Assembly: GCA_963761595.1 (NCBI GenBank)
Contig: CAVXHE010000004.1
Span: 105,601-169,600 of the forward strand
Length of the DNA: 64,000 bases
Origin: an uncultured Alphaproteobacteria bacterium
Lineage (GTDB): Bacteria; Pseudomonadota; Alphaproteobacteria; Rhizobiales; Xanthobacteraceae
Direction: 5' to 3'
The translations under genes were made by a program, and so were the position numbers. Shown piece after piece: positions 5,900 through 56,448 of the stretch. Every line of letters begins with the position of its first letter. The first letter of the stretch is position 1. Under the pieces are notes generated by a model, which searched no databases, was not told the origin of the DNA, and saw only the letters and a program-made list of their open reading frames with translations.

Positions 5900-6550
5900 A
5901 TGTCGTTGCGCACAGTTGCCTCTGCTGACATCGAGCCTCGCTTCGAACTGAGCCGCGAGGCCGACCACCGCATCGCGAATAGTCTGGCCGCGATCAGCGG
6001 CCTCGTTCGGGTGCGGGCACGGGCCGCGAACGATGTCGAGGACCCCGAAACTTTCCTCTTGGAAATCGCGGACCGCATCGAGACCGTCGCAAAGCTCCAT
6101 CGCCTTTTTTCCGCTTCCGATAACGGAAGCGTTCGGCTCAATGACTATTTGCAGGAAATTTGCGAGCGCTTGAGCAGCGCGCTTTCGCCGACTGCAATTT
6201 CATTTTCAGTGACCTGTTCGCCGAGCCACTTTGTGCCGTTCAATACGGCGCTGCCATTGGGCCTCATAACGGCCGAGCTGTTTTCCAATTCCCTGAAATA
6301 CGCGCACCCCGCCGGTCTCCCGGTGAAAATCACGGTGTCCTGCGGTCGCAGCGGCGACAAGCTGACGCTGAGCTATGAGGACGACGGCGTGGGATTTCCC
6401 GAGGGCTTCGATATTTGTCATGACGGACATTTGGGAATGCGTTTCATCCGGTCGCTCTGCGCGCAGCTGCGAGGCGCAAACACGTGGTTGAGCGATCCGC
6501 TCGGCATGCGATTTGAAATTATCGTTCCTTGTAAAAAGTTGGATCAGTGA
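5900..6550 (+). CDS. HWE/HisKA_2-type histidine kinase without recognisable sensor domain
   Basis: H-box EADHRIANSLAAISGLV lies about 25 aa from the N-terminus and is followed by HATPase_c motifs (ELFSNSLKYAHP, DDGVGFP). GAGGAG RBS 7 nt upstream of ATG 5900. Confidence 0.85.
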   Translation: MSLRTVASADIEPRFELSREADHRIANSLAAISGLVRVRARAANDVEDPETFLLEIADRIETVAKLHRLFSASDNGSVRLNDYLQEICERLSSALSPTAISFSVTCSPSHFVPFNTALPLGLITAELFSNSLKYAHPAGLPVKITVSCGRSGDKLTLSYEDDGVGFPEGFDICHDGHLGMRFIRSLCAQLRGANTWLSDPLGMRFEIIVPCKKLDQ

Positions 6551-6618
6551 GATGCCGTTAGGGTCGCCGGCGCCAGTTCCCACACGAGGAGCAAGCAGGT
6601 GCGGCGGCAGGAGCAACC

Positions 6619-6792
6619 ATGAAAACCGTTGAAGAATACCGCGGATTTGCCAGGGACTGCCGGAAGCTTGCCGCCGAACTCACCGACCCGGAAGACAAGC
6701 GCGCCACGGAATTAATGGCGGCGGCTTGGGACAAAGTCGCGAACGAACGCGAAGCCGCGCTCAAAAGCAATTCGCCGCTCGAAAAGGTGTAA
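6619..6792 (+). CDS. small helical protein (57 aa), paralogue of 18103..18303
   Basis: Below the track threshold. MKTVEEYRGFARDCRKLAAELTDPEDKRATELMAAAWDKVANEREAALKSNSPLEKV shares the pattern R..A..C...A...D..DK.....A..W.K.A with the ORF at 18103. Confidence 0.5.
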   Translation: MKTVEEYRGFARDCRKLAAELTDPEDKRATELMAAAWDKVANEREAALKSNSPLEKV

Positions 6793-6834
6793 TGCATGTC
6801 AGTTGGCGACCCGCTCCTCGTTGTCAATTTGCAA

Positions 6835-7053
6835 ATGTCCTCGCCACATTGGCGTTACTATTTCCACGTCGATGGACCGGGTGAGAATTGCGCCGACCAA
6901 TGCGGCGCCCTGCTGCCGAGCGACGACGCGGCGTTCGAGCACGCCGCCCGCATCATCCGTGAACTCAAAGAATCGGGTGACTACGACGACCCGGGCTACA
7001 TCATGGTGGTGCGGTATCTTGGCGGCGAAGTTGTTTTCTCGATTCCGTTCTAG
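6835..7053 (+). CDS. DUF6894-like small protein
   Basis: The WRYYFHVDG...GALLPSDDAAFEHAARIIRELKE pattern is typical of the Rhizobiales MxRYFFHv..g family. Start uncertain (ATG 6835 or alternative start at 6796). Confidence 0.55.
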   Translation: MSSPHWRYYFHVDGPGENCADQCGALLPSDDAAFEHAARIIRELKESGDYDDPGYIMVVRYLGGEVVFSIPF

Positions 7054-7157: not shown

Positions 7158-8201
7158 CACTGCGCGCGGCGAGGTTTGCGACAGCCGCACCAGATCGTCG
7201 ATCGAGACCGGGGTCGGGCTCAACAGCGCGACGATCCGCGCGCGCTCATCGGCTTCCGGCTCCGCGCCGGGTCCGGGCTCTTGCAGCTCGCCGTCCGGCG
7301 CCGGCAGCGGCAGGAGGTGTCCCATGATCGGCGCCAGCACATTGATAATGTCGGCGGCTTCGGTGACCGGCGTCGCGCCTTGCTTGATCAACCCGTTGGT
7401 GCCCTCGGCGCGTGGATCGAGCGGCGAGCCCGGCACGGCAAAGACTTCGCGGCCCTGTTCGAGCGCAAGCCGTGCCGTGATCAATGAGCCCGAACGCTTC
7501 GCCGCCTCGACAATGACCACACCGAGCGCGAGCCCCGAGATCAGCCGGTTGCGGCGCGGGAAATCCCGCGCGCGGGGCTCCCAGCCGAGCGGCATTTCGG
7601 AGAGCGCAGCTCCAGCCGGCAAGATGCTTTCGAGCAGGCTTTCATGCTCGGCCGGATAGATGCGGTCCTGGCCGCCGGCGAGCACCGCAATCGTGCCGCG
7701 TGCGGCACTTGCGCGATGCGCCGCCGCATCGATGCCGCGGGCGAGCCCCGACACGATGGCGAAGCCCGCTTCGCTAAGCGCTTGCGTGATCAGCTGCGTG
7801 ATTTTGATCCCGGCCGCCGACGCATTGCGCGAGCCGACGACGGCGACCTGCGGCATGGCCAGCACGTCGGTATTGCCGCGAATCGAAATCAAAGGCGGCG
7901 CATCGTCGATCATCTGCAGCCGGTGCGGATAATCAGCCTCGCCGGCGGCGACGATCAGGACGCCAAGCTTTTTCGCAGCCTCGATCTCGCGCTCGGCCTC
8001 TGCGCGCGAACAGATTTTTGGTGCCCCGGCGCCGCCGCGGCGGGCAAGGCCGGGGAGGGCGTCGAGTGCTGAGCGGGCGCCGCCGAAATGATTGATCAAA
8101 GCGCGAAACGTCCGAGGTCCGACATTCTGCGAACGTATTAGCCGCAGCCAATCGATCCGCTGCTCGTCCGTCAGCCGCAAGGTTTTTGCAATGTCGTGCA
8201 C
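7083..8201 (-). CDS. dprA: DNA-processing protein DprA
   Basis: Conserved from [30 protein letters not shown] through the Rossmann-like core ([28 protein letters not shown]) to the C-terminal winged helix. Most plausible start is GTG at 8201. The 135 codons upstream in the track ORF lack DprA similarity. Confidence 0.9.
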
Positions 8202-45305: not shown

Positions 45306-46648
45306 ATGCGCCTTTCCCGATACTTCCTGCCCAATCTGCGTGAGACGCCCAAGGAAGCGGAGATCGCGTCCCACCGGCTGATGCTCCGCGCCGGCATGAT
45401 CCGGCAGGAGGCGGCCGGTATCTACACCTTCCTGCCGCTCGGGCTGCGGGTGCTGAAAAAGGTCTGCGCAGATCGTGCGCGAGGAGCAGGACCGCTCGGG
45501 CGCGATCGAGCTTCTGATGCCGACCATCCAGCCGGCCGATCTGTGGCGCGAGAGCGGCCGCTACGAGGCCTATGGCAAGGAGATGCTGCGCATCAAGGAC
45601 CGCCACGAGCGCGACATGCTCTATGGGCCGACCAACGAGGAAATGATCACCGCGATCTTCCGCAGCTATGTGCGGTCCTACAAGGATTTGCCGCTGAACC
45701 TCTACCATATCCAATGGAAGTTCCGCGACGAGGTGCGGCCGCGCTTCGGCGTGATGCGCGGGCGCGAGTTCCTGATGAAGGACGCCTATTCCTTCGACCT
45801 CGATTTCGAAGGCGCCAAGCACGCCTATAACCGCATGTTCGTCGCCTATCTGCGCACCTTCGCCGCGCATGGGGCTGCGCTCGATCCCGATGGTCGCCGA
45901 AAGCGGCCCGATCGGCGGCAATCTGTCCCACGAATTCATCATCTTGGCGGACACCGGCGAGAGCGAAGTGTTCTGCGACCGCGACTATCTCGACTTCGAG
46001 GTTCCGGGGCCCGACGTCGACTTCACCCATGTCGGCCGCTTGCAGGCCATCGTCGACAAATGGACCTCGCTCTATGCGGCAACGTCGGAAAAGCACGATG
46101 CTGCGGCCTTCGCCAAGCTCGGCGCGGGCAAGGGCCTCTCGGCGCGCGGCATCGAGGTCGGCCATATCTTTTATTTCGGCACGAAATATTCCGAGCCGAT
46201 GAAGGCCGTCGTGACCGGCCCCGATGGCGTGGATCGGCCCGTCCATGGCGGCTCCTATGGCATCGGCCCAAGCCGGCTGGTCGCCGCCGTCATCGAGGCC
46301 TCCCACGACGAGGCCGGCATCAAATGGCCGGATTCCGTCGCGCCGTTCAACGCCATCATCCTCAATCTCAAGCAGGGCGGCGCCGACACCGATCCGGCCT
46401 GCGAAAAGCTCTATGCGGGGCTGACCGGCAAAGGCATCGACACCCTCTACAACGACCTCGACGAGCGGCCGGGCTCGAAATTCGCCGCCGCCGACCTGAT
46501 CGGCGTACCGTGGCAGATCCTGGTGGGGCCGCGCAGCCTTGCCGAAGGCAAGGTCGAGGTGAAGCGCCGCGCCGATGGGCAGCGCGAGCTGATGTCGGCT
46601 GCCGACGCGGTCGCCAGAATTTCCGCGTCAACGTGCGTTTCGGCATGA
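45306..46648 (+). CDS. proS: proline-tRNA ligase (alphaproteobacterial short type), 2 frame changes as assembled
   Basis: [34 protein letters not shown].. start. Has [55 protein letters not shown] and [14 protein letters not shown], plus the anticodon-binding end. Joins near 45465 and 45865. Confidence 0.9.
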
Positions 46649-46742
46649 TCTTCTGTGTGCGGCGGCGGTTTAACGCGAGAGACCAGGCTTGAAACCGCCA
46701 GAATCGTGTGAAACTCCGGGTAATCGCGGGGACCTGACATAA

Positions 46743-48012
46743 ATGGCCGAGTCGACCGGCACCCATCCTTTTTCGGCATTCGAATGGATGTTGTCGCTGC
46801 GCTATCTGCGCGCGCGGCGCAAAGAGGGATTCATTTCCGTCATCGCCGGCTTCTCGTTTCTCGGCATCATGCTCGGCGTCGCGACGCTGATCATCGTCAT
46901 GGCGGTAATGAACGGGTTCCGGCAGGAGCTGTTGTCGAAAATCCTCGGCCTCAACGGACATCTGCTGATCCAGCCGCTCGAGCAGCCGCTCACCGACTTC
47001 GCCGATGTTTCGGCGCGGGTGTCCAAGGTCAACGGCGTCTATCTCGCCGCACCCCTGGTCGAGGGCCAGGCGCTGGCGTCCTCGCCGTTCAATGCCTCCG
47101 GCGTCGTGGTCCGCGGCATGCGCGGCGGCGATCTCTCAAAGCTCACGCAGGTGTCCAAAAACATCAAACAGGGCACGCTCGACGGCTTCGACGATAACCA
47201 GGGCATTGCCATCGGCAGCCGGCTCGCCGAGCAGCTGTCGGTCCGCGCCGGCGACAATCTGACACTCGTGGCGCCGCGCGGCGCGGTGACGCCGATGGGC
47301 ACGACGCCGCGGATCAAGGCCTATAAGATCGCGGCGGTCTTCGAGATTGGTATGTCAGAATACGATTCGGCCTTCGTCTTCATGCCGCTTACCGAGGCGC
47401 AGGCCTATTTCAACCGCTCCGGCGACGTCACCGCCATCGAGGTCTATACCGACAATCCGGACAATATCGACAGTTTCCGCAAGGCCGTGACCGAGGCCGC
47501 GGCGCGGCCGATCTATATGGTCGACTGGCGCCAGCGCAACGCCACCTTCTTCAACGCGCTCCAGGTCGAGCGCAATGTGATGTTTTTGATCCTGACCTTG
47601 ATCGTGCTCGTGGCCGCGCTCAATATCGTGTCCGGACTGATCATGCTGGTCAAAGACAAATGCGAGCGATATCGCGATCCTGCGCACCATGGGGGCGACG
47701 CAGGGCGCGATCATGCGCGTGTTTCTGATTACCGGGGCTTCGATCGGCGTCGTCGGCACGCTGGTCGGCTTTCTGCTCGGCACCGTCGTCTGCCTCAATA
47801 TCGAGGAGATCCGGCGCTTCCTGTCGTGGCTCACCAATACCGAATTGTTCTCGCCGGAGCTTTATTTCCTGTCACAGCTTCCCGCCGACATGAACCTCAA
47901 GGAAACCACGGCGGTTCTGGTCATGGCGCTCGGGCTCTCGCTGCTCGCAACGCTCTATCCGTCATGGCGCGCGGCGCGGCTCGATCCCGTCGAAGCGCTG
48001 CGTTACGAGTGA
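46743..48012 (+). CDS. lolE: lipoprotein-releasing ABC transporter permease (LolC/E family), 1 frame change near 47665
   Basis: The N-terminus FEWMLSLRYLRARRKEGFISVIAGFSFLGIMLGVATLI, periplasmic domain and FtsX-like C-terminus (..ILRTMGATQGAIMRVFLITG..YPSWRAARLDPVEALRYE) lie in two frames. Confidence 0.88.
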
Positions 48013-48021
48013 TCGGGCCGC

Positions 48022-48757
48022 ATGGATGACACCACCACGATAGGCGAGGCCAGAACGCCGCTACCGGACAACGAGGAACAGCCGCTTCTCTTCCTGCACG
48101 GCATTTGCCGTCATTTCAGCCAGGGAGACCAGCGGCTTGATATTCTCAAGAACGCGCGAGCTTGCGGTGTGGCCCGGGCAGTCGGTGGCGCTGGTGGCGC
48201 CGTCGGGCTCCGGCAAGTCGACGCTGCTGCACATGGCCGGCCTTCTCGAACATCCCAATTCCGGCGAAGTCTATATCGACGCGGTGGCGACCACGCCGCT
48301 CACCGACACTGCGCGCACCCGGATCCGGCGCACCGAGATCGGCTTTGTTTACCAGTTTCACCATCTGTTGCCGGAATTCTCGGCGCTTGAAAACGTCGTC
48401 ATGCCGCAGATGATCCGCGGCCTGTCGAAGCGCGAGGCAACCTCGCGGGCCGCGGAATTGCTGAGCTATCTCGGCCTCAAGGACCGGCTCACGCATCGGC
48501 CGGCGGAATTGTCGGGCGGCGAGCAGCAGCGCGTCGCCATTGCGCGCGCGGTCGCCAATGCGCCGCGCATCCTCCTCGCCGACGAGCCGACCGGCAATCT
48601 CGACGTGCGCACCGCCGAACATGTGTTCGCGACGCTCGGGCAGTTGGTGCGCGCCTCGGGCCTCGCCGCCATCATCGCCACCCACAATTTGGACATCGCG
48701 GCGCAGATGGACCGCCGCGTCACGCTTCGCGATGGCGCCGTCGTCGAACTCGACTGA
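48022..48757 (+). CDS. lolD: lipoprotein-releasing ABC transporter ATP-binding protein LolD, 1 frame change near 48157
   Basis: Has Walker [10 protein letters not shown], the LolD-type [18 protein letters not shown], signature [14 protein letters not shown] and Walker [13 protein letters not shown]. The N-terminal 45 codons are in a different frame. Confidence 0.9.
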
Positions 48758-48765
48758 CAGAACTT

Positions 48766-49029
48766 CTAAGACTGCGGATGGCGATGCTTGTGCCCGCTAT
48801 ATTGCGGCGCCGCGGTTGCGGACGGATGATACCAATCGTTCTGCTGACAGAAGCCGCCGATGCCGCGCACGTTCTCCAGGCACTGTTCGAAAGTTGTGAA
48901 GCCGCAATTGGTGCCGCTGAAGCCTGAGCCGTAAATCGAGCACCACGGATAGTTGCTTTGCGCCTGCGCGCGCGGCGCGATTGCGATCGCCGCGACAAGC
49001 AGTCCGACCACGAAAATCAAGGTCTTCAT
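48766..49029 (-). CDS. DUF3551-like small secreted cysteine-containing protein (copy 1 of 3)
   Basis: MKTLIFVVGLLVAAIAIAPRAQA signal, then NYPWCSIYGSGFSGTNCGFTTFEQCLENVRGIGGFCQQN. Four conserved Cys and a basic C-terminal tail. Confidence 0.65.
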   Translation of the reverse strand: MKTLIFVVGLLVAAIAIAPRAQAQSNYPWCSIYGSGFSGTNCGFTTFEQCLENVRGIGGFCQQNDWYHPSATAAPQYSGHKHRHPQS

Positions 49030-49052
49030 GACGATCTCCCGTTTGAGGGGTT

Positions 49053-49316
49053 TCACGAATTTTTGCTGTGGCTCTTGCGCATCTGGTGCCGCGCCGGCGC
49101 GGCAGCAAGGGGCGGCCGATACGTGTCGTTTTTCTCGCAGAAGCCGCCGATGCCGCGGACGCTCGCCATGCACTGTTCAAAACTCGTGAAGCCGCAACTG
49201 GTGTCGCTGTAGGGCGTGCCGTAACGGGCGCACCACGGATAGTTCTGCGCTTGCGCGCGCGGCGCGAGGACGGCGGTTGCGAGAAGGAGTCCGAGCACGA
49301 AAAGCAAGGTCTTCAT
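49053..49316 (-). CDS. DUF3551-like small secreted protein (copy 2 of 3)
   Basis: MKTLLFVLGLLLATAVLAPRAQA signal, then NYPWCARYGTPYSDTSCGFTSFEQCMASVRGIGGFCEKN. Clear paralogue of the flanking genes. Confidence 0.65.
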   Translation of the reverse strand: MKTLLFVLGLLLATAVLAPRAQAQNYPWCARYGTPYSDTSCGFTSFEQCMASVRGIGGFCEKNDTYRPPLAAAPARHQMRKSHSKNS

Positions 49317-49359
49317 GGCAATCTCCCTTATCTAGAACTGTTGTTGCGAAGCTTTTGTT

Positions 49360-49629
49360 TCACGAGTTTTTGCTGCGGCTCTTGCGCGCCTGGTGCGGCA
49401 CCGGCTCCGCGGCCGCGGGCCCTTTGTACCAATCGTTTTTCTCGCAGGTGCCGCCCGAGCCGCGCGCGGTCGCCATGCACTGTTCGTAACTGGAAAAGCC
49501 GCAATTGACGCCGGCGCCGTCGGAGAAATTCGAACACCACGGATAATTCGATTGCGCCGCCGCGGGCGTTGCGATCGGCGCCAGTGCAATGAATCCTAAG
49601 AGTGCACACAAAAGCTTCGTGGCCATCAC
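49360..49629 (-). CDS. DUF3551-like small secreted protein (copy 3 of 3)
   Basis: Signal peptide, then SNYPWCSNFSDGAGVNCGFSSYEQCMATARGSGGTCEKN. Same Cys spacing as copies 1 and 2. Confidence 0.65.
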   Translation of the reverse strand: MMATKLLCALLGFIALAPIATPAAAQSNYPWCSNFSDGAGVNCGFSSYEQCMATARGSGGTCEKNDWYKGPAAAEPVPHQARKSRSKNS

Positions 49630-49763
49630 GGTTATGAACCCGAGCCGTGGCGGTTTATTGCATGGCGAAGAGGCGAAGGCTCTTCTTAGCCCAAAAAAAG
49701 GCCGCCGGATGCGGCGACCTCTTCGCAGTCTTGTTCAGCGCAGTGTTGTTCAGCGTCCCCCGC

Positions 49764-49988
49764 TTAGCAGGGGGCGCACCAGCAGCGATACGGGCCGCAG
49801 ACCCGGGTAAAGCCTGGCCCGCACCAGCGGCCGAAGCCGCGGCAGGCCGCCTCTTTCAGCGGGGTCGCGTTTTTGATTTGGGCATGGAAGCTCGCGGCGC
49901 CGGACGACTGAGTTTGCGCATTGGCGGCGATCACCATCGTGCCCAGCATCAGCGCGGCTGCGGTCAAAGTCATGGTCAGTTTTCGCAT
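49764..49988 (-). CDS. small secreted Cys-rich peptide (74 aa)
   Basis: ATG at 49988 (MRKLTMTLTAAALMLGTMVIAANA signal). The C-terminus CRGFGRWCGPGFTRVCGPYRCWCAPC has 6 Cys in 26 residues. Confidence 0.5.
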   Translation of the reverse strand: MRKLTMTLTAAALMLGTMVIAANAQTQSSGAASFHAQIKNATPLKEAACRGFGRWCGPGFTRVCGPYRCWCAPC

Positions 49989-50242
49989 AGCACCCTTCCT
50001 TCTCATTTTGTCGTGATTGCCGAGTAGAACGAGATTGCTACGGGACGGCGACAACGCGGGGGGCGTCGTTCGTAGCGCCGGCCTTTGGAATCGGCCGGCT
50101 ACAGGGGCTTATACGCGATAACACGCCGACTGGATCGGTGTCGGAGTAGGGGCTCTGCTGCGGTCCGGCAGGAATTTTGCGGGCGGCGCTTCATCGATCC
50201 CTCCTGGAGGCCGCAGCCGCGCCGCGCTGTCGCGGTATGGCA

Positions 50243-50407
50243 TTACTTTTTGGGCGAGATCATCGCCTGTTCGGCATTGCATTCCGAGCAGCGGTAGATG
50301 CGCCGCTCGGGCTCCTGATCGGTCGCCGGCTCGACATGCGACAAGCTCACATGACCGCCGCAAACGGTGCAGGTCGGCAATAAAAATGGGTTGATCTTTC
50401 CGCTCAT
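50243..50407 (-). CDS. small zinc-ribbon-like protein (54 aa)
   Basis: ATG at 50407. MSGKINPFLLPTCTVCGGHVSLSHVEPATDQEPERRIYRCSECNAEQ carries two CxxC pairs. Confidence 0.45.
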   Translation of the reverse strand: MSGKINPFLLPTCTVCGGHVSLSHVEPATDQEPERRIYRCSECNAEQAMISPKK

Positions 50408-50502
50408 TGCACGATTTATTTGCGTGAAAATCTCGTGCGTGAAAATCTCGCGCTGCCATCGAATCATACTGTGTCAGCAACATTACACGACGAGGCAAAT
50501 CA

Positions 50503-50853
50503 TTACCCGCGACACGACGCGTCGGCGCGAACAAATTCTCCTGAAGACAAGTTCAGCGACCTGAGCAACGCATCGCTGACCCGGCCCAGATCCTCAATGA
50601 TCAGGTCCTCAATGATATAGTCCTCAATTATATAACCGGGTTCGGCGGTTTTAGTTCGAATGACGTCCATCGCATCGTCCGGGTTGGCGATCGCGACGAT
50701 ATAAGCGACGGCATGTCGATCACCGCGAAACCTGCTCACCCGCACCAGCCGGCCGAAGAATTCAGTCGCGCGTCCGGTCATGAAGCGGTGGTTGCCGATG
50801 CCGTAGCCGCGATAGTCGACGTATCGCGGACGCGCGAGCGCGGTTTGCGGCAT
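50503..50853 (-). CDS. hypothetical protein containing a 3 x 15-bp coding tandem repeat
   Basis: 116-aa ORF in a lower-GC stretch. The repeat gives ..YIIEDYIIEDLIIEDL... No family recognised. Confidence 0.3.
   Translation of the reverse strand: MPQTALARPRYVDYRGYGIGNHRFMTGRATEFFGRLVRVSRFRGDRHAVAYIVAIANPDDAMDVIRTKTAEPGYIIEDYIIEDLIIEDLGRVSDALLRSLNLSSGEFVRADASCRG
50591..50635. repeat. 3 x 15-bp tandem repeat
   Basis: tcctcaatgatcagg tcctcaatgatatag tcctcaattatataa. Confidence 0.85.
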
Positions 50854-51082
50854 GGCGGTCCCCCGTATTGCAATGCGGTAACCGCGGGAACCGGGATGGG
50901 TTTCTTAAGTTTCGGATCGCGTCCGTGCGTGGTTATCCGTCCGTTGCGTGGAACGCAGAATTCGCAGGCTATCGGCTGCCCGCCTTCGCGCGGGTGCTCT
51001 ACAAAAAACTGACATGCCGGGGTCGTCAGATCGGATATCTATTTCCGACAAGGACGCATATTAAGGGTCATAATTAAAAGCC

Positions 51083-51262
51083 ATGACAAATTCAGAGAAA
51101 AAAGAAGCGCCGGTGATGCTGCCCTTTGCCGACAAAGAGGGATCGGGCTGGCACGTGATCGTGCGCTACCACGAAGGCCACGAGCGCCGCATCGATGGCT
51201 TCGCTTCCGAGAAGGAGGCGCTCGATTGGATCATCGCCAATTCCAATCAGGTCGATGAATAG
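51083..51262 (+). CDS. small hypothetical protein (59 aa), related to 51755..51982
   Basis: Below the track threshold. MTNSEKKEAPVMLPFADKEGSGWHVIVRYHEGHERRIDGFASEKEALDWIIANSNQVDE shares the pattern W.I......G....I.G..S...A.DWI with the ORF at 51755. Confidence 0.45.
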   Translation: MTNSEKKEAPVMLPFADKEGSGWHVIVRYHEGHERRIDGFASEKEALDWIIANSNQVDE

Positions 51263-51280
51263 AATTTTTCAGTCAGGTCG

Positions 51281-51610
51281 ATGAATGGAATAAGGCAGCC
51301 TCAGAGCTTTGCCTGCCGCACCGAAGCGGGCATAGTCGGTCGCATGGACAACACAATGGACAATACAGGTGAAACCGGTTGCGAACTGAAGATCCTCCAG
51401 GGCTGGGAGCCGATTACGCTCGAGGACGCGCTCAAGCTACATCCGGACCGCGTCAAGCGTTGCCCGATATGCCACGGCCGGGTCCGCGCGCATAAAGCCG
51501 CCGACGACGGAGCGGTCGCCCATTTCGAGCATCTTGAACATCATCCGGGCTGTTATCTGGAGAGCGCCTTCGACGGCAATCCAAGGCCGCATCGCAAGGC
51601 GCTCAGGTGA
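51281..51610 (+). CDS. hypothetical Cys/His-rich protein (possible zinc finger)
   Basis: 109-aa ORF (alternative start at MDNTMDNT, 51344). RCPICHGRVRAHK....HFEHLEHHPGC suggests a metal-binding motif. No family recognised. Confidence 0.35.
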   Translation: MNGIRQPQSFACRTEAGIVGRMDNTMDNTGETGCELKILQGWEPITLEDALKLHPDRVKRCPICHGRVRAHKAADDGAVAHFEHLEHHPGCYLESAFDGNPRPHRKALR

Positions 51611-51666
51611 CTAAGCCGCAAATGCTCTAGGGACTTCCGCCAAGCCGCGACGTCAGCGCGTCGCCG

Positions 51667-51918
51667 TCAATGCAACCGATCCAGCACGTCGCGGGTGATG
51701 TCCTCTCCCGTTTTGGCATCTCGGACAATGAAGTGATCGCCGCTCGCTAGTATCGTGGCCAACTCCGGACAGGGCATATTCCGCCATATGGGCAAATCGC
51801 CGCGAGTCAAAGTCATTTTCAAGCCGAAGCGCATCGAGGATGGGGATTGGCAAATCGAGGCCCACTGTCCCGGCGCGGAGATTCGGTACGTCACGGGCTT
51901 GGTCAGCAAAGCCGACAT
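51667..51918 (-). CDS. ORF with PhaR N-terminal-domain-like segment (possible gene remnant), antisense to 51755..51982
   Basis: The C-terminal ..PELATILASGDHFIVRDAKTGEDITRDVLDRLH resembles the ..LEDLA.MV..GEDF.V.DAKTGEDITRSVL.. motif of PHA synthesis repressor PhaR. The rest is not PhaR-like. Confidence 0.25.
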   Translation of the reverse strand: MSALLTKPVTYRISAPGQWASICQSPSSMRFGLKMTLTRGDLPIWRNMPCPELATILASGDHFIVRDAKTGEDITRDVLDRLH

Positions 51919-51982
51919 TGACGATTGGATGCAGGGTCCCCGGCGCGTAGATTGGCTCAGATCGCAAGGTTATGCGAAATGA
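51755..51982 (+). CDS. small hypothetical protein, paralogue-like of 51083..51262
   Basis: ..EDGDWQIEAHCPGAEIRYVTGLVSKADIDDWMQG.. aligns with ..EGSGWHVIVRYHEGHERRIDGFASEKEALDWIIA... Overlaps an antisense ORF, so the call is uncertain. Confidence 0.35.
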   Translation: MANSGQGIFRHMGKSPRVKVIFKPKRIEDGDWQIEAHCPGAEIRYVTGLVSKADIDDWMQGPRRVDWLRSQGYAK

Positions 51983-52173
51983 CCAACCCCCGGGCGCGGC
52001 TGGCCGTCGTCTGACCTACGAAACAACCAACATCAATGCGCGCTAAGGCCGAACGATATATCCGATATCGCAAGCGCCATTGGCATTGGCGTGATAAACG
52101 ACAATTGCTCTTGCCGTTTGAGGACGAGCAATGACCGAAAAATCGAATTCGCTCGAATATCGCACGGCGATCT

Positions 52174-52589
52174 TCAACGACGAAACGGATTGTCGCTCAC
52201 CATTTTCCGCTGAGGGACTGGGATAGCAGCAATATACTTCTCGAAATCTGCAGTCTTAATGGATGCGTGTAGCCGGATAAGAACGTATTTTTTTATGATC
52301 CGCGTCAGGGTAATTAGGCGATCATCCCGTTTTGATTTAGTCCATCCACGGTCCTTGGAAAATTGCCCCACAAGGATACAGGTATCAAATTAGTGGCTGC
52401 TGCGAGCCCTAGTTTTTCGTCGATCACGTCTTTGTAGTGCTCAATTAGCTCCTTGTGATGGGTGAGACGCTGATTGAGTATGATCCAGGACACGAAAATA
52501 CCCAGCGTCCCGCCGCTGATGAGTAAGGCGAAAGCACTCATCGTCGGATAAGCCGAGCGCAGATGATCGAGAATGGCGAACGGGTCCAC
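52174..52589 (-). CDS. low-GC hypothetical membrane protein, apparently split by one frame change near 52345
   Basis: ORFs 52314..52589 (with TM helix FALLISGGTLGIFVSWIIL) and 52174..52371 overlap in two frames. Visibly AT-richer than the surroundings. Confidence 0.35.
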
Positions 52590-52620
52590 TCCTCAATCAT
52601 AGCGGGATTCTTCGCCACAA

Positions 52621-52648
52621 TTGAAACTGACCCGACCCTGCCTTAACT
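52621..52648 (+). promoter_or_regulatory. sigma70-like promoter (TTGAAA-N16-TTAACT)
   Basis: The hexamers sit immediately upstream of the paired LexA-type boxes and 70 nt upstream of the 32-codon ORF. Confidence 0.4.
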
Positions 52649-52651
52649 CCA

Positions 52652-52684
52652 GAACAATAAGTGAACTATGTTCTCTTTTCGTTC
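52652..52684. promoter_or_regulatory. two adjacent alphaproteobacterial LexA (SOS) boxes in opposite orientation
   Basis: GAAC-aataagt-GAAC (52652-52666), then tat, then GTTC-tcttttc-GTTC (52670-52684). Both have exact 7-nt spacing and match the GTTC-N7-GTTC operator described for Rhodobacter, Rhizobium and Caulobacter LexA. Confidence 0.6.
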
Positions 52685-52718
52685 CCATATGGGAGCGTCA
52701 GGGAGAAGGGGACACACC

Positions 52719-52817
52719 ATGGTTCGCTCGGTTGTCGAGGAAGCACTGGCTTTGGCGTCGATTGGCCTGTTTCTGGCCACGGTCGCCGTCTGGGCGCAGG
52801 TTCTTGGCGTTCTCTAG
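52719..52817 (+). CDS. 32-aa hydrophobic peptide, candidate SOS-regulated small membrane protein
   Basis: ATG preceded by GGGAGAAGGGGA. MVRSVVEEALALASIGLFLATVAVWAQVLGVL has one predicted TM helix. Below the ORF-track threshold. Confidence 0.4.
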   Translation: MVRSVVEEALALASIGLFLATVAVWAQVLGVL

Positions 52818-52977
52818 CTGGGCTCGGGGTTATCTGAGATTTTGCCGCGCCGGCGAAGCGGGCATACTGGGGACAAGTGGGTTGGCGCGCCCGCTCGAAT
52901 TGCGATTGGCTGTATGCAGGTCGCGCAAGGCGCGTGGCGATGAACCCGCGTGCCTTTAGACCCAGGGTCCGAACACA

Positions 52978-55900
52978 ATGGCGGCCAAGCCCGGCTTCGT
53001 CCATCTGCACGTGCATTCGTCCTATTCGCTGCTCGAAGGCGCGCTGACGATTGCGCGGCTTGCGGAGCTCGCCAAGAAGGATCGCCAGCCGGCGCTGGCG
53101 CTGACCGACACCGACAACATGTTCGGTGCGCTGGAATTCTCGGAGAAACTTGCCGGCTATGGCATTCAGCCGATCGTCGGCTGCGCGCTCGGCATCGATT
53201 TCGGCGATCAGGAAAGCCGCAACCCGGCGCTCGAGCAGGCCTGGCCGCGCATCGTGCTGCTCGCCGCGGCCGAGGAGGGCTATCGCAGCCTGATGCGGCT
53301 GTGCTCGCGCGCCTATCTCGATACCTCGCCGCAGGACCGGCCGCACCTTATGCTCGCGGCGCTTGCCGATGAAACCAAAGGCTTGATCGCGCTCAGCGGC
53401 GGTCCGAAGGGACCGCTCGACGTCGCCATTGTCGGCGGACAGAACCCGCTGGCGCTGACGCGCTGCGAAGCGCTGCAAAGCCTGTTCGGGGACCGGCTCT
53501 ATGTCGAATTGCAGCGCCACGGCATGCCGGCCGAGCGCACCGCCGAAGCCGCCCTGATCGATCTCGCTTATGCGCGCGGCATTCCGCTCGTCGCGACCAA
53601 CGAGCCGTTCTTCGCCACGCGCGACGATTACGAGGCGCACGATGCGCTCCTTTGCATCGCCGAAGGCAAGCTCGTCGCCGACAGCGAACGTCAGCAGAAG
53701 ACGCCCGAGCACCGCTTCAAGAGCCGCGCCGAGATGGCGGCGTTGTTCGCCGACATTCCGGAGGCGATCGCCTCGACGGTCGAGATCGCCGAGCGCTGCG
53801 CGTTTCGGCCGCGCACGCCGGCGCCGATCCTGCCGCGTTTCACTCACAGGCGAAACCGATGAGCCGCAGGCGCTACGCGAGGCGGCGCTCGCGGGCCTCA
53901 AGGCGCGGTTGGCGCGTTACGGCGTCGCCCACGGCCACACCGACGAGGAATATAGCGAGCGGCTCGACTTCGAGCTCGGCGTCATCGCCCGGATGAAATA
54001 TGCCGGTTACTTTCTCATCGTCGCCGATTTCATCCAGTGGGCGAAGGCGCAAAGCATTCCGGTCGGCCCCGGCCGCGGCTCCGGCGCCGGCTCCTTCGTC
54101 GCTTATGCGCTGACCATCACCGATCTCGATCCGATCCGCTTCGGGCTCCTGTTCGAGCGCTTCCTCAATCCCGAACGCATCTCGATGCCCGACTTCGACG
54201 TCGATTTCTGTCAGGACCGGCGCGACGAAGTCATCCGCTATGTGCAGGGCCGTTACGGCCACGATCGGGTCGCGCAAATCATCACCTTCGGCACCTTGCA
54301 GGCGCGCGGCGTGCTGCGCGACGTCGGCCGCGTGTTGCAAATGCCCTATGGGCAGGTCGACAAGCTGTGCAAGCTGGTGCCGCAGAACCCGGCGAATCCG
54401 GTCACGCTCAAACGCGCGATCGAGGATGAGCCGCGATTGCAGGCCGAGCGCGACCGCGATCCCGTCACCCGGCGCGCTTTCGATATCGCGCAGAAGCTGG
54501 AAGGGCTGCACCGTCATGCGTCGACGCATGCCGCCGGCATTGTCATCGGCGAGCGCGCATTGACGGAACTGGTGCCGCTTTATCGCGATCCGAAATCCCT
54601 GATGCCGGTGACGCAGTTCAACATGAAATGGGTCGAGCCGGCGGGACTGGTGAAGTTCGATTTTCTCGGTCTCAAGACGCTCACGGTGCTCGACCATGCC
54701 GTGAAGCTGGTGCGGCGGCGCGGCATCGACATCGATCTTTCGAGTGTGCCGCTCGACGACACGCAAGACCTACGAGATGCTGGCGCGCGGCGAAACGGTC
54801 GGGGTGTTCCAGGTGGAAAGCGCAGGGCATGCGCCGCGCGCTGATCGACATGCGCCCCGACCGGTTTGAAGATCTGATCGTGCTCGTGGCGCTTTATCGC
54901 CCGGGACCGATGGCGAATATCCCGACCTATTGCGCGCGAAAACTCGGTCACGAGCGCACCGACTACCTGCATCCAAAGCTGGAGCCGATCCTGCAGGCGA
55001 CGTACGGGATCATCACCTATCAGGAGCAGGTCCAGCAGATCGCGCGCGACCTTGCCGGCTACAGCCTCGGCAAAGCCGATATCCTGCGTCGCGCGATGGG
55101 CAAGAAGGACCGCAAGGAGATGGCGTCGCAGCGCGACAGTTTCATCTCCGGCGCGGTCGAGCGCGGCATCGGCCGTTCCGATGCCGAAGCCATTTTCGAT
55201 ACCTGCGCCAAGTTTGCGGAATACGGATTCAACAAATCGCACTCGGCGCCTTATGCGCTGCTCACCTATCAGACCGCCTATATGAAGGCGAATTATCCGG
55301 TCGAGTTCCTCGCGGCGTCGATGACGCTCGACATGGGCAATACCGACAAGCTCGCCGAATTCCGCGCCGAGGCCGAACGGCTCGGCATCAAGGTCGAGCC
55401 GCCCTCGATCAACCGCTCGGCGGTGGAATTCGAGGTCGAGGGAAATACCATCTTCTACGCGCTCGCCGCTTTGCGCGGCGTCGGCCGCCAGGCGGTCGAC
55501 AGCGTAGTCGCCGCGCGCGGCGACAAGCCGTTCGCCGATTTGGCCGATTTCGGCCACCGCATCAATCCGCAGAGCCTCAATAAGCGCGTGCTGGAAAGTC
55601 TCGCCGCCGCCGGCGCCTTCGATACGATCGAGCCGAATCGCGCCCGCGCTTACGCTGCGTGCGATACGCTTCTTGCGACCGCCCAGCGCACCCATGACGA
55701 CGCGGCGCGCGGCCAATCCGAGCTGTTCGGCGGCGCGGCCGCTGCCGCCCCGATCATGGTGCCGGCGCTCGAACCGTGGCTGCCGGCGGAGCGTCTGCAG
55801 CGCGAATATGAGGCGGTCGGCTTTTTCCTCACCGGCCATCCGCTCGACGATTATGCCGCGGCGCTCAAGCGGCTGCGCGTGCAGTCCTGGTCGGAATTCT

Positions 55901-56448
55901 CGCGCGCGGTGAAAGGCGGGGCAGGGGCCGGCCGCGTCGCCGGCACTGTCGTCTCGCGCACCGAGCGGCGCACCAAGACCGGCAGCAAGATGGGCATTAT
56001 CGGGCTGTCCGATCCGACCGGCCATTACGAGGCGGTGCTGTTCGCCGAAGGCTTGGCGCAATACCGCGATCTCTTGGAGCCGGGCAAAGCCGTGCTGTTG
56101 TTCCTCACCGCCGAAGTGCAGGGCGATGAGGTGCGCGCGCGCATTCAATCGGTCGAGCCGCTCGACGAGGCCGCAGCCCGCATGCAGCGGGGGCTCCGCG
56201 TGTTTCTGCGCAACGAAGAACCGCTCGCCGGTGTCGTCAAAAGGCTCGAGCCGACGCGCCATGGCCGCAACGGCGGCAATGGCTCAGAGCAGAATGGGCA
56301 AAATGGCGACGGCGAAGTCTCGATGGTGCTGATGCTGCAGAACGGCAGTGAGGTCGAGGTGAAGCTGCCTGGGCGCTTTAAGGTCTCGCCGCAGATCGCC
56401 GGCGCCATCAAGGCGGTGACCGGCGTGGTGACGGTCGAGGCGCTGTAA
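52978..56448 (+). CDS. dnaE: DNA polymerase III subunit alpha, about 3 frame changes as assembled
   Basis: PHP domain [16 protein letters not shown]. Palm and fingers regions [39 protein letters not shown] and ALYRPGP. HhH, OB fold and C-terminal tail are present. Joins near 53845, 54765 and 54825. Confidence 0.93.

Follow-up and report, generated by a model that had tools for sequence, protein, structure and literature searches.

How does an alphaproteobacterium hold back division while its DNA is being repaired? SidA of Caulobacter serves as the model of how the SOS response arrests division in this class; it inhibits division without killing the cell (PMC4211646) and delays late division via FtsW, FtsI and FtsN (PMC4211646, PMC13396833). 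Its gene, CC_1927 (also CCNA_02004), shows the strongest induction by mitomycin C in Caulobacter, with a log ratio of 1.39 in the wild type and −0.04 in a recA mutant (PMC4211646, Data S1A). CC_1926 is dnaE (PMC1839093, Table 7), for which the same treatment brings a small RecA-dependent rise (log ratio 0.19 versus −0.04), and CCNA_02005 encodes a nucleoside hydrolase. The corresponding SOS box, GTTC-N7-GTTC, has been established experimentally in Caulobacter and its relatives (PMC9578287, PMC12700426). In curated resources, SidA is found in Caulobacteraceae only, and a damage-induced stop to division in rhizobia and their relatives is undescribed. Here, we examine a 64,000-nucleotide (nt) stretch of the genome of an uncultured member of the Xanthobacteraceae (GenBank assembly GCA_963761595.1, contig CAVXHE010000004.1, positions 105,601 to 169,600 of the forward strand; the whole stretch is referred to as the window) that carries, just upstream of dnaE, a pair of predicted LexA operators in front of a 32-codon open reading frame (ORF). 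We consider it likely that this is a LexA-repressed promoter driving an inner-membrane peptide of 32 amino acids (aa), and that the peptide is the Xanthobacteraceae/Bradyrhizobium counterpart of the division inhibitor SidA.

Other small membrane division inhibitors have been described, namely YneA in Bacillus, SosA in Staphylococcus, ChiZ in Mycobacterium, DivS in Corynebacterium and, again in Caulobacter, the SOS-independent DidA (PMC13396833, PMC4211646). They are small, damage-induced membrane proteins that act against late steps of division instead of the assembly of FtsZ, and this much our candidate would share with them. In contrast, they have no sequence relationship to it, most are larger and carry extracytoplasmic domains such as LysM, and none is linked to dnaE. 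An SOS-induced, division-inhibiting micro-protein beside dnaE is known already; new is the family described here, for which neither Pfam nor NCBIfam holds a model, and no new principle comes with it. We found no extension of SidA beyond Caulobacteraceae in the literature consulted, whose coverage did not take in the original SidA paper or the alphaproteobacterial LexA regulon study.

A 32-codon gene under purifying selection lies upstream of dnaE

The initial annotation of the window had called the paired boxes, the short ORF and its ribosome-binding site, and on re-reading the sequence we find all of them where they had been placed (Table 1); the one difference is that 34 rather than 35 nt separate the right box from the ATG. 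Does this ORF encode a protein? We collected dnaE loci from contigs of one genome per species with the N-terminus of DnaE alone as query, and because sampling was based on dnaE, the resulting set is unbiased toward finding either the peptide or the boxes. It comprises 80 loci of Xanthobacteraceae sensu lato (including Bradyrhizobium, Tardiphaga, Pseudolabrys and Pseudorhodoplanes), with DnaE proteins 67–89% identical to that of the window. The peptide ORF lies upstream of dnaE and on the same strand in 78 of these 80 loci. A complete homologue is present in 77 of them, typically 100–300 nt 5′ of dnaE and always on the dnaE strand, and the 78th locus (L012) preserves the C-terminal end of the peptide at the contig edge. 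The sole loci with neither ORF nor boxes in the 700 nt upstream of dnaE are L062 and L064, whose upstream sequence is common to both, unlike that of the others, and may represent a lineage in which the gene was lost or relocated.

Taking the 77 complete copies together with that of the window, the ORF has exactly 32 codons in 78 of 78 cases. Entropy across these copies is 0.81, 0.30 and 1.31 at codon positions 1, 2 and 3, the ratio of nonsynonymous to synonymous substitution rates (dN/dS; Nei-Gojobori) is ~0.2, and residues M1, L12, S14, L17 and W25 are invariant in an alignment of 38 diverse members. On account of the fixed length, the variation at third positions and the low dN/dS, the ORF is a genuine protein-coding gene on which purifying selection acts, and the conservation at the protein level beside dnaE that the initial annotation had proposed as a check is borne out. 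The sole charged residues of the window peptide are R3, E7 and E8, followed by a run of 24 uncharged hydrophobic residues. Mean Kyte-Doolittle hydropathy over residues 9–32 is 2.12, next to 2.13 for residues 9–29 of SidA.

The family has so far gone without a name. Pfam, NCBIfam and PADLOC scans of the 32-aa peptide returned no match. A profile search, for which the 32-aa family sequences were padded with uninformative X residues, gave 4865 matches at E ≤ 10; the best 120 of these are all 'hypothetical protein' or unnamed and without a Pfam domain, and one of these 120 carries the name Bradyrhizobium. Running the family profile against the representative set yielded 552 matches, and the 150 listed contain the same module within mis-called longer ORFs. 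When the peptide was compared by tblastn with mobile elements, no match appeared among 72,556 plasmids, and 50,697 phage records gave one chance-level match only (E = 10).

Two opposed LexA-type boxes sit within the predicted promoter

The two boxes of the window, GAACAATAAGTGAAC and GTTCTCTTTTCGTTC, are separated by 3 nt. GTTC-N7-GTTC occurs twice on the two strands of the 64-kilobase (kb) window, both times at the peptide promoter, with ~1.8 occurrences expected; the count is unremarkable, and what is remarkable is that two copies lie 3 nt apart. The decisive evidence that the boxes are not chance is, in our sequence comparison, their conservation across related loci. Of the 78 copies, 73 have two perfect boxes separated by 3 nt, and the remainder consists of three copies with one mismatch, one with a 4-nt gap and one that is degenerate. 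That two adjacent boxes were unlikely to be fortuitous had been argued from the window alone, and the argument is upheld by their recurrence in relatives.

Aligning the operators of 76 loci reveals how unevenly this conservation is distributed. The tetramers carry 2.0 bits per position, and most spacer positions 0.1–1 bit. The fifth spacer position of operator 2 is a T in 73 of 76 loci; the gap between the boxes reads TAT or AAT in most of them, with A at position 17 in 69 and T at position 18 in 74 of 76. Invariant tetramers with variable spacers form, on this alignment, the pattern of a protein-binding footprint. Alphaproteobacterial LexA operators, the paired boxes of lexA and recA promoters among them, have the same exact GTTC-N7-GTTC direct repeat, a T-rich spacer and an overlap with core promoter elements, and a spacer that is T-rich toward the second GTTC, as here, fits the published SOS-box consensus.

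How do the boxes relate to the promoter? TTGAAA-N16-TTAACT had been proposed as its two hexamers. That assignment does not hold: TTGAAA (52621–52626) belongs to a motif of patchy occurrence, and it is TTAACT that aligns with the conserved −35 element. Its partner is a −10-like hexamer, at a spacing of 16–19 nt (mode 17) across the aligned loci. The alphaproteobacterial sigma-70 consensus is CTTGAC-N17-CTATAT, with CTTGAC as the −35 part. The conserved pair would thus fit a sigma-70 promoter of this class with the boxes inside it, box 1 in the −35/−10 spacer and box 2 over the −10 and the likely transcription start, which would amount to a classic occlusion design.

The motif that includes TTGAAA is present in some loci only, others having different upstream classes, and is therefore not a core promoter element. 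At least 14 of 77 loci (for example L004, L013, L042, L051 and L066) have it in the form (CAATT)SAAACTGACCCACTACC (AAACTGACCC...), ~10 nt before the −35, and in several loci it folds as a GGGTCA...TGACCC hairpin. It could be the site of a second regulator, the terminator of the upstream gene or the edge of a variable region; a further candidate, the end of a transfer RNA (tRNA), was rejected, as a tRNA scan of 48–53 kb came back empty. In five loci, GTCAAGTGTAAC replaces it at the same place. Five Bradyrhizobium loci (L050, L052, L067, L076 and L077) have GTTAACCAT ~40 nt upstream of the left box, a sequence that resembles the CtrA-type half-site TTAACCAT and hints that in some Bradyrhizobium species the promoter may receive a signal from the cell cycle.

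The same box type is found at lexA promoters of relatives

For an independent view of the box type we turned to lexA itself. An approximate LexA query retrieved Bradyrhizobium and Nitrobacter LexA at 91–95% identity to the query, and six 3.7-kb loci (L082–L087) represent three lineages: the Bradyrhizobium diazoefficiens type, Nitrobacter and Bradyrhizobium sp. ARR65. Each contains exactly one perfect GAAC-N7-GAAC, 112–130 nt upstream of lexA, so that a check suggested with the initial annotation, here run on relatives, turned out positive in all six. The promoter is laid out as TTGCRG, GAAC-N7-GAAC, ATATAGTGTCC (ATATAGTGTAT in Nitrobacter) and an inverted, imperfect second box, GTTC-N7-GTTT, with 11 nt between the two boxes.

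These lexA promoters share the design of the peptide promoter, namely −35, box, −10 and inverted box. They differ in geometry, as the boxes of the peptide gene are 3 nt apart, with their centres at a distance of 18 base pairs (bp), and their junction supplies the −10 hexamer. A gap of 11 nt at lexA as against 3 nt at the peptide gene implies that the recognised unit would be the 15-mer and not a 33-bp palindrome. Judged by sequence, the motif of the peptide promoter is the LexA box type of its Bradyrhizobium and Nitrobacter relatives. As an aside, the six lexA promoters are near-identical over ~60 nt (AATTAAG-N-GTTGCRGAAC-N7-GAACATATAGTGTMYGTTCATGATTTGTTTCG), and lexA is flanked in these loci by a moeA-like gene upstream and a convergent comEC-like competence gene downstream.

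The peptide resembles SidA in position, predicted regulation, size and sequence

For comparison, a Caulobacter-type contig (L081; FWPV01007877.1) was fetched by an exact 23-nt probe, the published sidA_R primer. Its order is lolD (6243–6929), a nucleoside hydrolase gene on the opposite strand, boxes, sidA (8051–8140), a 36-nt gap, and dnaE from 8176. sidA lies here in a 40-codon ORF, in which translation from an internal ATG yields the 29-aa SidA, and NCBI names the 29-aa protein "cell division inhibitor SidA". The promoter (7987–8035) holds a perfect GAACATCTTGTGAAC, 1 nt later GAACGAAAAGGGAAT, and then GAAC-N7-GAAA, a tandem array in the same orientation. The named SidA family has 23 clusters only, and those with a named source are all from Caulobacter or Caulobacteraceae.

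What do the two have in common? Both are peptides of ~30 aa (29 for SidA, 32 in the window) that are single-pass, with their charges within residues 3–8 and an uncharged hydrophobic run to the C-terminus. Both genes have GAAC-N7-GAAC boxes in the promoter, lie directly 5′ of dnaE on the same strand and have lolD a few kb upstream. Features of the 32-aa family's own are the conserved W25, Q27 and EE pair and one extra N-terminal residue.

At the level of sequence, aligning the profiles of the two families with hhalign gives 25 gap-free columns at 32% identity (P = 2e-4, probability 47%), in which E, LAL, S, F, M and AQ are aligned. With a composition-preserving null, the score of the true alignment was equalled or exceeded by 5 of 1000 SidA profiles with permuted columns, and reversing the profile brought it down from 18.8 to 5.7. 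Against a hidden Markov model of the 32-aa family, SidA scores 8–11 bits, a value that none of 2608 natural small-ORF decoys attains (best 4.9) and 0.3% of shuffled sequences do; with query and model exchanged, the median of the real sequences is attained by 0.76% of shuffles. The similarity between SidA and the 32-aa family is thus weak but significant, and the sequences by themselves make a suggestive case. When the shared position, strand, predicted regulation and size are added, distant orthology is the explanation that needs the fewest assumptions, and we conclude that the 32-aa peptide is probably a distant orthologue of SidA. This would indicate that sidA-type genes were already linked to dnaE before Caulobacterales and Hyphomicrobiales split.

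Several observations weigh against this interpretation. The 32-aa family lies strictly outside the curated SidA equivalog family: NF033228 (29 positions), which gives Caulobacter SidA 72 bits at a curated cutoff of 35 bits, found no match at E ≤ 10 in the window peptide or three further family members, and pairwise BLASTP between peptide and SidA produced no alignment, the sequence being too short and hydrophobic. The hhalign probability of 47% and the empirical P of ~0.005 have to be read with the knowledge that hydrophobic helices can look alike, so that sequence alone leaves homology unproven. Operator arrangement differs, with an inverted pair 3 nt apart in the 32-aa family and tandem boxes of the same orientation at Caulobacter sidA, and so does the distance to dnaE, which is 100–300 nt in the former and 36 nt in the latter. 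The window and the fetched dnaE loci contain neither lexA nor recA, and the box type has been judged from relatives rather than from the window's own genome. Finally, the −35 hexamer of the window is degenerate (TTAACT), and its assembly carries indel errors.

Discussion

How might such a unit work? We propose that, in undamaged cells, two LexA dimers on opposed operators 3 nt apart inside the promoter would block RNA polymerase. Upon DNA damage, RecA-stimulated self-cleavage of LexA would free the promoter, and a short leader with a good Shine-Dalgarno sequence would allow translation of the peptide. With its charged N-terminus (R3/E7/E8) and its 24-residue hydrophobic helix, the peptide would enter the inner membrane and there delay late cell division as SidA does, via FtsW, FtsI and FtsN. 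Part of the transcription probably continues into dnaE; such read-through is plausible because the intervening spacer has no conserved terminator and because dnaE shows its small RecA-dependent rise in Caulobacter. What we infer from the comparisons above is that LexA binds the boxes, that damage induces the gene, that the peptide inserts into the membrane and acts on the division machinery, and that transcription reads into dnaE. That the locus specifies a small membrane peptide akin to SidA or TisB and controlled by LexA/SOS, as had been suggested at the outset, agrees with the selected ORF, the footprint, the boxes at lexA promoters, and the position of and similarity to sidA, as far as comparative sequence analysis reaches.

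A further-reaching proposal would make the peptide gene and dnaE an ancient SOS-responsive unit across at least two alphaproteobacterial orders, in which division arrest comes together with a rise in dnaE via read-through and the tight inverted double operator around the −10 sets a high induction threshold. We regard this as doubtful at present. Were it correct, an ancient peptide-dnaE unit would couple replication-restart capacity to a division checkpoint.

Could the peptide instead be a toxin? An SOS-induced type I toxin akin to TisB or DinQ would not act on the divisome specifically; it would collapse the membrane potential and favour dormancy or persistence. TisB is LexA-regulated, and the E. 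coli pairs TisB/IstR-1 and DinQ/AgrB share with our locus a LexA box before a ~30-codon gene for a hydrophobic peptide; LexA-type boxes, a length of ~30 aa, a single hydrophobic helix and the lack of a family match are all what this explanation would predict. These systems differ, however, in having an antisense or divergent small RNA (sRNA) as antitoxin, in their narrow distribution and in their membrane depolarisation. None of 78 loci has an antisense site resembling the alphaproteobacterial promoter consensus in the ORF plus 150 nt, a weak test since sRNA promoters can be atypical, and an Rfam scan of 51.5–53.3 kb gave nothing but a chance-level sX6 (E = 0.44). Toxin-antitoxin modules are usually patchy, whereas this gene shows strict synteny in 78 of 80 loci together with purifying selection and has no plasmid or phage copies, and its position and sequence are like those of SidA, a division inhibitor that does not kill (PMC4211646). 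A toxin is quite unlikely in our judgement. Of the two functions first envisaged for the peptide, division inhibitor or toxin, we favour the former because the gene is syntenic and chromosomal, without plasmid or phage copies and without an antisense promoter.

Alternatively, the boxes might serve mainly to place dnaE under SOS control, with the ORF as a leader or upstream ORF that tunes dnaE and a peptide devoid of function. The ORF's invariable place 5′ of dnaE on the same strand, the lack of a conserved terminator between the two and the slight RecA-dependent rise of Caulobacter dnaE (0.19 versus −0.04) would suit such an arrangement. Yet a pure leader has no need of conservation at the amino-acid level (dN/dS ~0.2; invariant M1, L12, S14, L17 and W25), the spacer is variable (104–316 nt) and mostly has a promoter-like pair of its own, no attenuator-like structure or Rfam match was found, and the Caulobacter counterpart works as a protein (PMC4211646), which makes this explanation very unlikely. 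Scarcely credible, finally, is a regulator other than LexA, for instance one reading the whole 33-bp inverted repeat and keeping the gene outside the SOS response: the four tetramers do make up one palindrome (GAAC-N7-GAAC-N3-GTTC-N7-GTTC), but each half is the exact alphaproteobacterial LexA direct repeat, T prevails at the conserved spacer positions near the second GTTC (fifth spacer T in 73 of 76), the lexA promoters of relatives hold the same box type at an 11-nt gap, and the Caulobacter counterpart is LexA- and RecA-dependent.

Returning to a LexA-repressed SidA counterpart as the likely identity of this gene, what would follow? The candidate occurs in essentially every sampled Bradyrhizobium, Nitrobacter and Xanthobacteraceae-type genome, where it is either 'hypothetical' or uncalled, and the 32-aa peptide offers a testable candidate for damage-induced division arrest in rhizobia and their relatives. 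Curated equivalog models can overlook fast-evolving orthologues of micro-proteins, and gene order exposes them. On the practical side, the two-operator promoter, with its clean design, could be turned into a reporter of DNA damage for these bacteria, which matter to agriculture.

Other features of the locus

Table 1. Features of the peptide gene-dnaE locus (positions are those of the window)
Feature	Position	Strand	Remarks
Recurrent upstream motif TTGAAACTGACCCGACCCTG, contains TTGAAA	52621..52640	.	AAACTG[AG]CCC-type in 14/77 loci (strict pattern)
−35 hexamer TTAACT, weak variant of conserved TTGACT	52643..52648	+	Aligns with TTGAC(T/A/C/G), which nearly all 78 copies have 2–5 nt before the left box
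LexA operator 1 (predicted), GAAC-N7-GAAC on +, GTTCACTTATTGTTC on − (GAACAATAAGTGAAC in the window)	52652..52666	-	Fills the −35/−10 spacer; tetramers invariant in 76/76; spacer A-rich, variable
−10-like hexamer CTATGT	52666..52671	+	End of box 1, 3-nt gap and start of box 2
LexA operator 2 (predicted), GTTC-N7-GTTC (GTTCTCTTTTCGTTC in the window)	52670..52684	+	Covers the −10 and the likely transcription start; spacer pyrimidine-rich
Shine-Dalgarno region, purine-rich, GGGAGAAGGGGA	52701..52712	+	GGAG/GAGG/GGGA ≤16 nt from the start codon in 72/78 copies
SidA-like single-pass membrane peptide gene, 32 codons, encodes MVRSVVEEALALASIGLFLATVAVWAQVLGVL	52719..52817	+	ATG at 52719, end of stop codon at 52817; codon-position entropy, dN/dS, profile comparison
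Peptide gene-dnaE spacer	52818..52977	+	No conserved terminator
dnaE (DNA polymerase III alpha subunit)	52978..56448	+	~80% identical to DnaE of L007, which is intact (1170 aa)

In the window, dnaE falls into three frame segments on account of two indels, which jointly restore the frame, with junctions near 53845–53852 and 54802–54829. Each segment is ~80% identical to its intact counterpart and has no stop codon inside it, and short homopolymers are found close to the junctions. Upstream, proS and lolE (45475–48029) also switch frames, and the dnaE of L002 is truncated. By their sequence, the breaks in dnaE, proS and lolE look like long-read assembly error rather than pseudogenes.

Between peptide gene and dnaE, the spacer measures 104–316 nt across loci (median 191). 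A conserved intrinsic terminator was sought there and rejected, since a hairpin plus T-run is present in 9 of 76 loci versus 13 of 228 shuffled controls, which is no enrichment; a canonical TTGAC-N17-20-TAnnnT promoter was found in none of 78 spacers. Most relatives instead have a conserved GTGGAC(A/T)-N17/18-CAYCAT or CCCCAC pair 50–110 nt upstream of dnaE (for example L045, L051 and L073). The GTGGAC-N17/18-CAYCAT pair, to judge from its sequence, is probably dnaE's own housekeeping promoter, and its −10 part resembles CCCCAT motifs of the sigma-32 type. The window (52930–52977) and its closest relatives (L001–L006 and L008) have another, shorter spacer type, seemingly without a −10-like part, and L001 has a strong hairpin followed by TTTT ~20 nt before dnaE.

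Gene order in the window is proS, lolCE, lolD (48137–48757), ~4 kb of variable DNA, the boxes, the peptide gene and dnaE. A divergent low-GC gene next to the boxes, a 91-aa ORF at 52589–52314, had been suggested as possibly LexA-controlled too. This part of the initial annotation finds no support in the comparison, as the ORF has no counterpart by tblastn in any of the 80 related loci; Pfam, NCBIfam and PADLOC scans of it returned no match. The interval from lolD to the peptide gene (48760–52620) is variable throughout, with a GC content of 48–58% versus ~63%, and holds orphan ORFs, the 91-aa ORF and others for small, secreted proteins rich in Cys among them. Its counterpart in Bradyrhizobium sp. 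RDT10 (L051, 900–3685) contains a long ORF that may encode a transposase-like protein, along with an unrelated ORF of 401 aa; the Caulobacter interval is occupied by the nucleoside hydrolase gene. The interval appears to be an insertion hot spot beside a fixed peptide-dnaE pair. In one further locus (L010; CAWHPH010000039.1), the spacer and the 5′ end of dnaE occur twice, ~3 kb apart and ~3 kb downstream of the peptide gene, which reflects a partial tandem duplication or else an artefact of assembly.

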